A stretch of 64,000 bases of DNA from Octopus vulgaris. Lineage: Eukaryota. The notes under the pieces were generated by a model. It had not been told where the DNA came from. It saw nothing but the letters and a program-made list of their open reading frames with translations, and did not search any database. The stretch's first letter is position 1. The number at the start of each line of letters is the position of its first letter. A program made the position numbers and the translations under genes. Of this stretch, positions 6,448-48,720 are shown one piece after another. Where the stretch lies: NCBI GenBank assembly GCA_951406725.2, contig OX597815.1, positions 61,566,001 through 61,630,000 of the forward strand, in the 5' to 3' direction.

Positions 6448-6484
6448 CAGTACCGGTTTCAGTCATTTGAGACCTTTTCAACTG
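6448..6484 (-). ncRNA. Type I hammerhead ribozyme, U3-A8 core variant
   Basis: Reverse complement: cag UUGAAAA ggtc-tcaaat-gact GAAA CCG GUA ctg. Palindromic ACCGGU stem III. Lies in the PLE 3' UTR. Confidence 0.7.
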
Positions 6485-7232
6485 TAACGATTAAATAATT
6501 AAATTTAGAAACATTAAAAGAAAAGTTTTTTTAAAAGAATATTTGTATAGTGTTCAAATATAAGTGGCATTTTCCTTGTTTCTACCTTTCTCTGTCTCTC
6601 TTGTTTACACTTGTGGGCTCGAGGTCGTTGTGAATTCTTGGTAGGGAAGAAGAAGAAGAAGAAGAAGAAGAAGAAGAAGAAGAAGAAGAAGAAGAAGAAG
6701 AAGAAGAGGAGGAGGAGGAGAAGGGGGAGAAAGAATTTGGGAGTGCCTTGATTGTCGTATTTTGAGTGGTCAGTGGCGGCTAGCAGTTGCTGTTCAATTC
6801 ATGAGAATATTTCTATTGAAAGGTTTGTTTATAGAATTTGCGTAGGTGTTATACTAAAAAGCATTAGTGATAAAGTTAGGAAGTAGGAGGGGGAGAAGAA
6901 GAAGGAGAAGAAGATGATGATGATGATGATGATGATGATGATGATGATGATGATGACGACGACGACGACGATGATGATGATAATGATGAAGAAGAAGAAG
7001 AAGAAGAAGAAGAAGAAGAAGAAGAAGAAGAAGAAGAAGAAGAAGAAGAAGAAGAAGAAGAAGAAGAAGAAGAAGAAGAAGAAGGGAGAATATGAATGAG
7101 TGGAAGTAGTGAGATGTTGTACGACTTAAAGTTGGCACGTTATGGGTTATAGCTGTGATTGGGGCTGATTTTTAATAGATTCTTAGGAATGTAATATTTG
7201 CGTGTGTATTTGTGTTATTCTAAAGCCGAGGT

Positions 7233-7317
7233 GGATATACCTATTTCTTTACTACCCACAAGGGGCTAAACACAGAGGGGACAAACAAGGACAGACAAAC
7301 GGATTAAGTCGATTACA
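7233..7317 (-). mobile_element. 3' tail fragment of SINE family D
   Basis: Matches 26665-26745 (cctatttct..tacccacaag.ggctaaaca.agaggggacaaacaaggacagaca). Confidence 0.7.
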
Positions 7318-8429
7318 TACCGTTTGTCGTAGACCCGTTCAGAAGGGCCTGTATTTTGTAATAAAGAGAGTTTCTTTACTTATTCGTTGGCTCGAGGTTG
7401 TATCGTCCCTGAATTGGTAGAGGGGGAAAATCCTGAAGCTTGGTGTTTTGTTGTTGGCGCAAATATCTATGTGTTGGTTGAATGCTATTTTTCTGTTTTG
7501 GGGAAATTTTATCTAGGTTCTGTGCAGGGCCATTCTTTTACGCAAACTATTTTTTTATTGACACCCAGAGCAGGTTAGTGTGTATATCAGGTTCTCCGAA
7601 GCACATGTGAAATTACTTTTTACTTTGAACCGTTGTCCCTGTTCGAAGGAGAACTCTGATCCCGCATATCCCGCAATTGGGTCTTCCACATTTTTTTACT
7701 CTCGGCTTCTGTGTTGATGAGCGTATTCGGGCTTGTGTTAGGAGACTTTTCATAGATTTAGGCTGTCTCTTGCTTTTTATGATCGTGTGTGTTTGGAGGA
7801 TTGTGTTCATTCTGTGGTCTTTTTTTAGCAGGGGTATGTTTTGGAGGATGGTGTCGAAGGCTTCATTGTTGAGGGGGTTGTGTGTGGAGATGTATGGTAA
7901 GGCTTTTGGTCGTAAATTTTCCTTTAATTTGGGATGTCTGAGTTCCTGGATGTTGAGTTGAAGGGCACGTTGAATGCATATGTCAATAAGTGAAGGTGGG
8001 TAGTTCCTGGTGATGAGGGTATCTTTTAGTTCTTGTAGTCGTGTGTCTCTGGTGTTTGCATTAGAAATTATAGTACATAGCCTTTTTGCTAGATTGAAGG
8101 GGATAATCATTCTGGTGTGTCTGGGGTGGCATCAATTAAATGGAAGATATTGCTTAGAATCTGTACGCGGATAGTATATATCTGTTTCTATTATATTATT
8201 AGATTTCTTAATGAGGATGTCGAGGAAGGGGAGTTGTTGCTGGCTATATTCCATCGTGAATTGGATATATATATATATATATATATATATATATGTGTGT
8301 GTGTGTGTGTGTGTGTGTGTGTGTGTGTGTGTGTGTGTGTGTGTGTAATATGTATATACATACACACATAAATATATATATATGTGTGTGTGTAAGTGTC
8401 TGTGTGTATGTATGTATGTATGTATGTAT

Positions 8430-8820
8430 GAGAACATCGTTGTCTTCGTCTGCCGAAAAACGCATTTTTTTTCCAAAATACGCCAGCTAAACTAAGTTGT
8501 AATGTCTATAGTCGTAAGACACCCGCTGTTTTTGTCCTGTTATTACTATTATTGTTTTTGTATTTATATTCGTGTGGCATCGTCCGTTTTTCTGTCCTTG
8601 TTTTGTATACATTCGATCCTTTTTCCAAGAAATCTAATGCTCGTAGCTTAGTTTTTCCTTGGGGCTGGCCAGATCGGAGCGATCTCAAGATTAATCCGAC
8701 GAAATTGCGAGGATGATCCAGTTCTTGACTGAAGATTGAAGGCTTCGAATGTCCCCTCCGTATTTTTGTATCGTCTTCTAAATGTTTTACGTTCTTGTCC
8801 CATTTTGTATTTTTCTACAT
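8430..8820 (+). mobile_element. Microsatellite-flanked dispersed repeat family P1, probable PLE 3' UTR/pLTR
   Basis: Homologous to 38618-38750, 38849-39330 (-), 61381-61890 and 62240-62748 (ggctggcc...gaaatt..gatgatcc.gttcttgactgaagat). Confidence 0.65.
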
Positions 8821-8828
8821 ATATGTAT

Positions 8829-45363: not shown

Positions 45364-45882
45364 TATATATATATATATATATATATATATATATATATAT
45401 ATAGATAGATGTATGTGTATACATGTATGTGTAGATGTATTATTTTAAATTCAAATTTACATGTATATATATATATATATATATATATATCTATGTATGT
45501 ATATATATAGATGTATACATATAGATGAATATATATAGATGTGTGTATATATATATACATATATAGATATATATACATGTATATATATATGGATATATAT
45601 ATATATACATATATATATACATGTATATATATATAGATGTATATGTATACATGTATATGTATAGCTCTATATGTATACATGTATGTGTAGATGTATATAT
45701 ATAGATAGATGTACATGTAATATGTACATATATATACATGCATACATATATACACCCATGCAAACATACACACCCACACCCATACATAAGTGTTGGTGTG
45801 GCTATGTGGTAACAAACTTGGTTCCAAAACACATGGTCCTCAGTTCAGTCCCACCTCGTGATAACTTGGCATGTTTTCTGCT

Positions 45883-46025
45883 ATATCTGTCTGTGGGAAT
45901 CCCTAAAACTTGAGAACTACACAACCAATTCCATTCAAATTTACAATGCAAAATTTTTAATTTTCAAAAATTCCAATTCTAAAGGGTCGAAACAAACCCG
46001 AGCAACGCCGGTCGATACTGCTTGT
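45883..46025 (+). mobile_element. Short Helitron-like element
   Basis: 3' hairpin cccgagcaacgccgg followed by ctgcttgt (decayed CTAG). The 5' part matches 44070-44135. Confidence 0.5.
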
Positions 46026-47379
46026 ATATACATAAAACAAAAACACATTAGTCAACGACCGAATGAGCATTACAATTTCGCGCCTTTAACGTTGATATTG
46101 ATCACTTTTGGTGGCGCCAATGGCGAAAATCTAAAGAACGTACAGGACAATGACGAAACGAAACATAAAATAACATATATATATATATATATATATATAT
46201 ATATATATATATATATATATATATATATATATATATATATATATATATATATATGGCGGTGCCCCAGCATGGCCACAGCTCATGAGCTGAAACTAGAATC
46301 AATCAATCAATCAATAATATATATATATATATATATATATATATATATATATATATATATATATATATATATACAAGAACAAAAAAGATATGCGGCCGAC
46401 AGATATGGGATAACGCAAAGGAAAATGTGCTGTAGGAAAGGAGACGAGAGAAGGATAGCTAAAAATCAGAACGAATGAAGACGTAAAGTATTAAGGAGGG
46501 AAAGAGAAAAGGGGAGGGAAGAAGGCAAAAGAGAGGCAAAGAAAGTATTAGTCGTCGAATGAAAATATTGGAAGAATATTTTACAAGGAAAAAGATTCAG
46601 GAATGCGTAGCGTTACATATATACATATACATACATATATATAAGCGCATATTGTTGTTAAATGCTCGAAATACGAGACTAGAAAAACAACCAACAACTG
46701 ATGAAGGGTCGTTCTTTATGTTGTTTGTCTTGTTTTCCATTTGTGTCTTTCGTTGTTCGAAAGAATAGTTCATGTTCCATGTACTCATGGTTCATATTTT
46801 TTGTTGCGCACGTTTCGTGACGTCCTGTGCCCACATATGCATATATATATATATATATATATATATATATATATATATATACGTATAGATGTATGTACAT
46901 ATACGTATGTATATATGCATATATATATATATATGACCTCGTGTTAATATATATAGCGTGCAGTCCGACAAATTATATTTTACGACGTACCTCACTGAGG
47001 ACCTGAAGATAATTATGTAAGTAAAATTGCATAATTTATTAACAGTAAAACAATTGTATGGGATTAATCTATATTTTTGTTATTTTTCATTTGTCCTGCT
47101 CGCTTACGTTCTTAGTGTGCTAAATTTTTCTCGAGAACATTTCTTAGTGGTTCAGACCCTTGCGGATCTTATCTAGCGTAAGAGCGTCCACATAGTGGAT
47201 TCTCTCTCATATTTATACACACACACACACACACACATATATATATATATAGATGTAAGTATGTACATATACGTTTGTATAATATATGCATATACATATA
47301 TATATTATATATATATACATATATATATATGTGTATATGTATATATATATATATATATATATATATATATATATATATA

Positions 47380-48030
47380 CCCTTCTTCTCTCCCTTTCTC
47401 TTGCTTCTCCTCCCCCCTTCCCGTCGTTCACCCGCAACGTGACTTCCGTCTTCCTGTCGTTCACCCGCGACGTCACTTCCGCTGCTGTCTCTCCCGCCTG
47501 GCTCTTTCAAGGTAATGGACGACATTTCTTTTCGCTCCGCTCGTCGTCCATAAAAGATTCTGCGTTTGCAATACTTTTTTACGTTCGGCGTCAACAGCCC
47601 TTCTTATCTTGTTTTTCTTTGTCTTGTCCTTTACTGTTTACAATTTGTACTGTCGTTACTGTCCTGTTTTTACCATTTTTTACCCCTCTGCGAAAAGATC
47701 TCAGAATTTTAATTGATTTGCTTTTCGCAGGAAGGAAAGTTTTCTTGTCGAAGATACGTCTCGCTTTTATCCTTCGAAACGTAGAGTAGATGAAATCTTT
47801 AGCGACTGAAGAAGGGGTTTTTCTTTGTATTAATTGTCCTGTACTCTATTTTTTTTTGCTGTTTTTAAATATTTGTCCAGTTCCTTTGGTTTGTGTCTAT
47901 GTTTTCGTTTCTCTTTGTGTTCGACGTCCTTTTGGTGTCCTGTACTCATATATGCGTGTATATGTACATGTAGAGGTAGGTACGTACATATATGTTTATA
48001 TATATGCATATGTTTTATTTTATTTATTAA
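47380..48030 (+). mobile_element. TA-flanked repeat related to P1/P2
   Basis: CT-rich body, then hairpin-GAAA and ctgaaga arrangement as in P1. Its 3' part matches the reverse complement of 10535-10610. Confidence 0.5.
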
Positions 48031-48048
48031 TATATATATATATATATA

Positions 48049-48720
48049 ACCAATGTAAAGACGGAATCTCTACACAAGAAAGAATCAACAAGGAGAATCT
48101 TTTAATTGAAAAATTCCAAACGCATCCTAATATGCAAACTCCACGATGACCATACTCCTTTTTCTAGCATCCTATCTAACAAAAACTTGATATAAGCATC
48201 CTGTCTGACAAAAAATCCATCACTCCAATTAAAGAGCATAAACTCTAGAGAATTGTCTCCCTTTACTCACAGGAACTGGATAACTCCTACCCCATTTCCT
48301 GTTTTGACACATTCACTCAACGCTTTAAACTAAGCACTACATTTAAGCACATGGATCCTAATCCTCCAAAGAAGTTTTTCCAAGGACTATTATTGAACTC
48401 TAAAAGCATAAAGACTCTACAATGTATTGGTATACTTATTTATTAATTTTTGTATATATCTATTATTATTTTTTTGAAAAAAACATTGTAAATTTCTTTT
48501 TTCCCCTTCCTCAATTTAAAAAAAAATTTCTTTTCCCCTTCCAAATCTTGAAAATTTGTCTTGCGATGAAAACCGGTTTGATTTATTATTTTTTCTTTTT
48601 TAATTTTCCATACAGCCATTTTTATTAAAATGTACTTTCAATTTAACATTCTTCCTTATAATTTTTCCTCTCCTATCATTTCTTCACGTGCGGTCAACAC
48701 AACCCCACCATTTACTGATT
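48049..48720 (+). mobile_element. 5'-truncated PLE (GIY-YIG C-terminus plus 3' UTR), TA-flanked
   Basis: QCKDGISTQERINKENLLIEKFQTHPN is homologous to QCGIGTPTQIRLNKETFFIEKYKPKLN at 44925-45004. Confidence 0.75.
48543..48584 (+). ncRNA. Hammerhead ribozyme, U3-A8 core variant
   Basis: aaatc UUGAAAA tttg-tcttg-cgat GAAA A CCGG UUU gattt. Confidence 0.6.

Follow-up and report, generated by a model that had tools for sequence, protein, structure and literature searches.

The stretch of DNA analysed here, referred to as the window, comprises 64,000 nucleotides of the Octopus vulgaris genome (assembly GCA_951406725.2, contig OX597815.1, positions 61,566,001 to 61,630,000 of the forward strand), and holds three motifs of the hammerhead ribozyme type, each of which lies in the tail of a decayed Penelope-like element (PLE). 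The window is AT-rich (36% GC) with many microsatellites, and the assembly to which it belongs amounts to 2.8 Gb. The first remnant, of a family named A, is 5'-truncated and occupies 6390..8266 on the minus strand, where a reverse transcriptase (RT) thumb, a CX4CxxC linker, and a GIY-YIG endonuclease, together about 950 nt of frameshifted sequence, are followed by a 3' pseudo-long terminal repeat (pLTR). It was delimited by translation and by tblastn and blastn to the relative L061 (90% nucleotide identity over 8266-7321, 81% and 90% in the tail); its pLTR carries microsatellite expansions and it ends near (TA)n. The second remnant, of family B, consists of an inverted 5' segment (44564..44744, minus strand; the usual PLE inversion, found by blastn at 91% over 182 nt and by tblastn) and a 3' part (44742..45328, plus strand) with the C-terminal ~100 codons of the GIY-YIG endonuclease and the 3' pLTR. 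The latter matches the L064 protein with 79% amino acid identity in tblastn, and its Pfam GIY-YIG score of 13.2 bits is below the cut-off. Of the family D element, the 3' part is left (48049..48676, plus strand), with the last ~27 endonuclease codons and the 3' pLTR; among 1,562 candidates, the search gave 41 scored DNA matches, and blastn aligns the remnant at 83% over 638 nt with L123, a relative that carries the endonuclease. An initial annotation, made from the letters alone, had placed the motifs downstream of related GIY-YIG C-termini, and such remnants do precede all three.

Motif 1 (6448..6484, minus strand) is built of stem I (6484-6482/6450-6448), the core UUGAAAA (6481-6475), a stem II of 4 bp with a G·U at 10.1-11.1, the GAA box, the palindrome ACCGGU (6457-6452), and A17 at 6451, so that the triplet is GUA and the predicted cut falls at 6451/6450; sequence inspection extends its 3-bp stem I, past an A·A mismatch, by 4 further pairs. 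Motif 2 (45164..45202, plus strand) has a stem I of 7 bp, its core at 45171-45177, a stem II of 2 bp, ACCGGU at 45189-45194, and A17 at 45195, again in a GUA triplet, with the predicted cut at 45195/45196. A short duplication in this region (45160-45177), also seen in the family-B loci L021, L030, and L059, creates an additional core-like heptamer that precedes the true core by 9 nt. In motif 3 (48543..48584, plus strand), stem I has 5 bp, the core UUGAAAA lies at 48548-48554, stem II starts with a U10.1·U11.1 mismatch and continues with 4 pairs, 2 of which are G·U, and the palindrome is AACCGGUU (48571-48578); U17 at 48579 makes the triplet UUU, and the predicted cut is at 48579/48580. All three motifs contain both core boxes (N3-UGA-N7-N8-A, GAAA) and an NUH triplet, are closed by helix I (type I) with pairing sequences that differ between the families, have no extra base after A9 in their short helix II, and bear a palindrome in the place of stem III. 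Both the sequence and a structure scan find the UUGAAAA motifs where the annotation had put them, and U3-A8 keeps the 3-8 Watson-Crick pair in all three; the cleavage after GUA that it foresaw fits the triplets of copies 1 and 2, while copy 3 has UUU.

Cofolding predicts that the palindromes pair between molecules: in the predicted homodimers, the palindrome and stem I pair between the strands, and the dimers lie 4.1, 8.1, and 7.3 kcal/mol below two monomers for copies 1 to 3, respectively. By sequence, the motifs belong to the minimal type I class of hammerheads and lie in the pLTRs of three decayed PLE families. That they might instead be chance matches in AT-rich, low-complexity DNA draws on the abundance of the words UUGAAAA and GAAA at 36% GC; it is refuted by 300 second-order Markov simulations of the window, none of which yielded any match (the simulated pattern was fixed after the motifs had been seen), by 11,549 matches in the genome compared with 66 for the control, and by the fixed site behind the endonuclease in every family. 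The structure scan of both strands returned, besides the three motifs, one unrelated weak match, a C3·A8 hammerhead-like sequence at 18503 (minus strand); its stem I has 4 bp, its loop III is long, and it is probably due to chance. Two near-identical stretches about 600 bp apart (58640-58720 and 59240-59320) each carry ACCGGT without a hammerhead core.

Covariance models of Rfam do not recover these motifs. In a scan of the whole window, the 150 matches listed out of 443 are microsatellite-driven noise of the miRNA type, and when each motif was rescanned with RF00163 and RF02275, no copy rose above the gathering threshold; motif 1 gave a weak match to Hammerhead_HH9 (18 bits, gathering score 52), and motifs 2 and 3 gave no hammerhead match. 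A canonical C3-G8 copy also falls short (12.3 bits, threshold 34), so short stems suffice to explain the Rfam result. The expectation that consensus searches miss the motifs is thus borne out for CUGANGA patterns, whereas the Rfam failure needs no core swap.

Elsewhere in the genome, relatives of the three remnants are better preserved. Pfam RVT_1 is above its cut-off in three of four proteins scanned, the L061 protein reaches 25.1 bits for GIY-YIG (cut-off 22.6), and the CX4CxxC linker precedes the endonuclease in the relatives as in copy 1. The order of RT and C-terminal GIY-YIG matches endonuclease-containing (EN+) PLEs of the Neptune/Nematis type, an assignment by layout, not by an RT tree. 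In L294, a full-length relative of family B, identical U3-A8 motifs stand 3,996 bp apart in both pLTRs, flanking the RT and the endonuclease; L294 also has an inverted copy, and it shares with L063 the pLTR repeats and an inverted, 5'-truncated segment. The window copies retain the motif of the 3' pLTR only, and they occur singly behind endonuclease remnants, not in the short tandem units of non-LTR retrozymes. Over the last 140 amino acids, identity among families A, B, and D is 51-59%, and five PLE families in all, with 47-61% identity in the endonuclease region, share the core and differ at 3-8, the position of the motif behind the endonuclease being fixed in each. The three window copies represent old, separate families and not one element. 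Near copy 3 (48515-48729, minus strand), L132 matches both strands of the region, as expected if L132 is an inverted pair; it also shares another short repeat seen at 16218, 22753, 36781, 60081, and 61370 of the window.

The genome-wide count of 3-8 combinations, which the initial annotation had proposed as a check, reveals real covariation. The whole genome was searched for the core followed, after 6-20 nt, by GAAACCGGUH, with the reversed pattern as control; the stem III types counted are ACCGGU and AACCGGUU. U3-A8 gave 11,549 matches (control 66), A3-U8 1,760 (control 323), C3-G8 179 (control 31), and G3-C8 172 (control 54). Among the mispaired combinations, C3·A8 gave 302 (control 47) and U3·G8 401 (control 39), while A·C and G·U together come to ~208 by subtraction; R3-R8 gave 661 (control 301) and Y3-Y8 1,029 (control 203). 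Reversed-pattern controls are noisy for purine-3 patterns (965 in the R3-Y8 search) and were not subtracted for small cells. The AACCGGUU type of stem III adds 419 matches (control 24), and a hand count of the first 100 gives 94 U-A and 6 U·G; the compositions stated below for the Y3-Y8, C·A, R3-Y8, and tandem-family matches are likewise hand counts. U3-A8 is accordingly the usual form in this genome, with a ~65-fold excess over C3-G8 among ACCGGU-type matches.

Neither Y3-Y8 nor R3-R8 was accepted as a ribozyme family: 82 of the first 100 Y3-Y8 matches belong to one repeat without stems, and the R3-R8 class is mixed. The same stemless repeat supplies 25 of the first 100 C·A matches. Represented by L053 and L227, it is abundant (~800 copies by extrapolation) and combines core-like words with ACCGGU, which inflates the mispaired counts. 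Stem I, by comparison, pairs at 4/6 positions at least in 72/75 U-A, 22/30 A-U, 22/30 G-C, and 17/20 C-G loci, with differing sequences, and an endonuclease is present within 1.5 kb upstream of 11/30 A-U loci (one being a nested family-B copy) and of 10/30 G-C loci. On this evidence, the A-U and G-C matches represent real families, and each of the four Watson-Crick combinations at 3-8 is represented by repeat families whose stem I pairs. The rest of the core has been kept across 40-50% protein divergence, and G5, A6, A9, G12-A14, and the NUH triplet are conserved in families with unrelated stems.

How often the pair has changed was read from trees. In the endonuclease tree (42 rows; 7 of 49 dropped, namely three nested wrong assignments, two duplicates, one poor, and one frameshifted sequence), a single clade unites the G-C copies (94/97), a second group holds four of the five A-U copies (82/95), and U-A is the state of three families. 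Taken without an established root, the tree needs five changes in all, two of them to U·G, and does not order the states. Three U3-A8 copies do not show three compensatory changes, and on this tree the U3-A8 of the three window families may be simply inherited. A second source of switches is a 359-bp tandem family, retrozyme-like, with 401 matches (control 0), of which the first 100 comprise 42 C-G, 52 U-A, 6 C·A, and 0 U·G; its loci (L034-L050, L088-L103, L194-L213) hold most C3-G8 matches. With positions 3 and 8 masked and 23 of 61 rows dropped, the tree of this family shows a single clade of U-A (100/100) and a single one of C·A (88/93), which implies a single switch plus an amplified mispaired branch.

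Several further families illustrate the range of states; clusters of motif copies were sampled by class and do not give unbiased frequencies. In the PLE family E (L134-L163), the natural core is A3-U8, stem II has 2 bp, and the loop is often GAAA or GAUA; L234-L237 form another old A3-U8 group, with a longer, U·U-closed stem II and a UUU-like GUU triplet. Family F (L164-L193, L238-L243) is a PLE with both G3-C8 and A3-U8 cores: its A-U copies find their best matches in G-C and other A-U copies, at 87-94% identity (A-U to G-C up to 92%), and among the first 100 matches of the unbiased R3-Y8 search it contributes 5 G-C, 6 A-U, and no half-changed copy. At L030/L138 (7828096 and 7828216 of contig C1), an inverted pair of family-B-like copies carries U3-A8 in one and A3-U8 in the other. 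In a single case, L167 1526-1848, a family-F copy is split by ~320 bp inserted at the predicted cut site.

These trees also bear on the possibility that U3-A8 goes back to a single old, AT-biased double change which most PLE families here inherited, the covariation reflecting a few founder events with no ongoing selection. Both steps, C to U and G to A, are transitions toward AT, the endonuclease tree requires no more than its five changes, and the tandem family has a single C-G/U-A switch beside an amplified C·A clade. Such an account has to accommodate, however, that going from U-A to A-U takes two transversions, that the four Watson-Crick states form stem-paired families, that the large mispaired classes are mostly unrelated stemless repeats, and that the core outlived the protein divergence mentioned above. 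It is thus considered very unlikely, and founder effects and chance matches taken jointly are hardly less so.

Family B offers evidence that selection on the motif can relax. Of its 2,351 copies, 1,446 have an intact junction, and the first 100 of these are all A8; in the first 100 of the other 905, in which a single base is missing precisely at the predicted cut site, G8 occurs in 20. All family-B U·G motifs with this flank that were inspected carry the junction deletion. Two trees of family-B flanks were built, with 31 of 65 rows dropped in the smaller and 16 of 65 in the larger (49 rows, midpoint root). In the larger, the older subfamilies, including window copy 2, have intact junctions, and the deletion characterises one long-lived lineage plus two other copies. 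Within the junction-deleted lineage G8 arose (100/100), and the junction is intact again in one young clade; the smaller tree rejects a single junction-deleted clade (p-AU 0.0001). Loci of this series include L004, L057, L063, L064, and L295. The deletion and regain pattern could stem from recombination between family-B subfamilies, and motifs with the deleted junction may be dead or may refold so that an extra U precedes U3. The idea that every mispaired 3-8 subfamily also lost the cut-site base holds for the family-B U·G clade and was rejected in general, because the junction is intact in the C·A tandem subfamily (10 motifs; exception L097) and in the five family-D U·G copies inspected.

With a probability of about 0.7, the pattern as a whole is best explained by weak, dimer-dependent cleavage by active source elements under long-term selection that can be relaxed. 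The RNA of the active ancestors of the window copies would have been cut weakly and as dimers, two RNA copies (the 5' and 3' pLTRs of one transcript, or tandem units) pairing through the palindrome, and, by analogy with the PLE and hammerhead literature, each core would cut the partner strand after N17, with the cleavage trimming or circularising the element RNA. Position 3-8 would need Watson-Crick pairing and not one given pair, so that lineages could have moved among C-G, U-A, A-U, and G-C, with U-A dominant in an AT-rich genome. Selection would act on the source elements, cleavage helping without being required in each round of insertion, and the three window copies would be dead fragments that decay neutrally.

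A number of observations weigh against this explanation. The junction-deleted family-B lineage kept spreading without its cut-site base and was amplified in several waves. Amplification also reached a C3·A8 subfamily whose junction is intact, including three tandem copies in L198, and an older family (L052, L218-L226) is C3·A8 in most copies, contrary to the pairing rule (seven of eight clustered copies, sampled by class); in family D, U·G accounts for 6 of the first 100 AACCGGUU-type matches, and the five U·G copies inspected have an intact junction. Element copies end in (TA)n at family-specific distances past the predicted cut, with no pile-up of ends at the cut itself. The 2-bp stem II of copy 2, a length also found in family E, is absent from the predicted folds. 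Copy counts are not independent, and the trees yield only a handful of switches. Finally, when a type III hammerhead was subjected to deep mutational scanning, rescue of activity was confined to the G-C swap, and the other double mutants in the region were low (PMC9901934). The statement of the initial annotation that the double change implies selection for catalysis is accordingly too strong, since amplified C·A and U·G subfamilies and a mobile junction-deleted lineage exist.

Some of these points would suit a different function, in which near-inactive hammerhead descendants are kept in the pLTR as a fold or as a protein-binding and dimerisation signal, the 3-8 pair being structural and not catalytic. 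The 905 family-B copies without the cut-site base sit in young, mobile lineages, genomic ends do not cluster at the cut, stem II is very short, and, in a study on the anole, PLE hammerhead mutants insert normally in vitro and no RNA-seq ends are seen at the cut site (PMC11167929). A retained fold nevertheless sits poorly with the conservation of the catalytic-core positions listed above in spite of unrelated stems, with the apparent regain of an intact junction in one young lineage, and with the description of the 3-8 pair as part of the tertiary-stabilised active structure that is absent from minimal ground-state crystals (PMC3884650). On balance it is unlikely, though the least so of the alternatives to weak cleavage by source elements.

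As for what the window adds, its flagged motifs are one more host for a published variant, while the genome-wide picture gives evolutionary support to the view that the 3-8 contact needs pairing and not identity. The counts suggest that censuses based on CUGANGA would recover less than 2% (179 of ~13,700) of the ACCGGU-type motifs with a Watson-Crick pair in this genome. Natural lineages that match one another (U-A with the junction intact, U-A and U·G with the junction deleted, and junction regained) bear on whether Penelope elements need the hammerhead. We tentatively propose, at somewhat less than even odds, that all four Watson-Crick 3-8 pairs became fixed in self-cleaving retroelement families of one genome and that family B lost its cut-site base, after which the 3-8 pair was broken in one branch while another recovered the junction. 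If true, the family-B series would be a direct record of the loss and recovery of a ribozyme in a mobile element, and the genome a natural saturation experiment on an active-site pair.

Set against the literature, the U3-A8 variant in PLEs is already published and not new. A search for natural A3-U8 or G3-C8 returned nothing relevant, with Lünse et al. 2017 and the supplements of Perreault et al. 2011 outside its coverage, and a search on octopus found no hammerhead-ribozyme paper; passages of PMC2920678, PMC2837043, PMC11014351, PMC10085705, and PMC6765202 hold nothing on 3-8 variants. Neither PLE families with natural A3-U8 or G3-C8 nor the full set of four pairs in a single genome were thus found in the literature searched; Lünse et al. 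or the Perreault supplements may cover them. The paper of Perreault et al. (2011; PMC3088659) reports natural C3-G8 to U3-A8 covariation, which it calls rare, together with a U10.1-U11.1 mismatch, a 2-bp stem II, and a weak stem III, describes U3-A8 as active in vitro, and cites in vitro activity of covarying 3-8 pairs; its section on core variants does not mention A3-U8 and G3-C8, both of which occur here.

Among the closest counterparts are the minimal metazoan PLE hammerheads described by Cervera and De la Pena (2014; PMC4209133), including the U3-A8 variant of Schistosoma mansoni Cercyon, which share with the octopus motifs the type I topology, a palindrome for stem III, the location in the pLTR, inverted pairs, and U3-A8. 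The authors describe U3-A8 in minimal hammerheads of Schistosoma PLEs (~1,300 matches) and weak cleavage of PLE minimal hammerheads, as dimers, and S. mansoni(4) of their Fig. S3 is PLE-linked with the identical UUGAAAA heptamer. Among the 56 representatives of that figure, 53 are C-G, two U-A, and one U·G by hand count, and none is A3-U8 or G3-C8, which the descriptors used could not find. Stem II in the octopus has 2-5 bp, mostly without an extra base after A9, unlike the 7-8 bp of those PLE hammerheads, and Fig. S3 also lists variants without the long helix II or the extra base. The 359-bp tandem family fits the metazoan non-LTR retrozymes described in PMC7229834 and bioRxiv 10.64898/2026.07.22.740005, whereas the window copies are PLE tails. 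In the anole Poseidon element PAc, naturally C3-G8, the engineered double change C3G/G8C partly restores cleavage (PMC11167929); in the octopus, the swap is natural. The elements themselves agree with the Neptune/Nematis EN+ PLEs of Craig et al. (2021; PMC8557442), whose layout is RT, CX2-5CxxC linker, and C-terminal GIY-YIG, and with which they have in common this domain order, the pLTRs, the inverted 5'-truncated copy, and the association with (TA)n.

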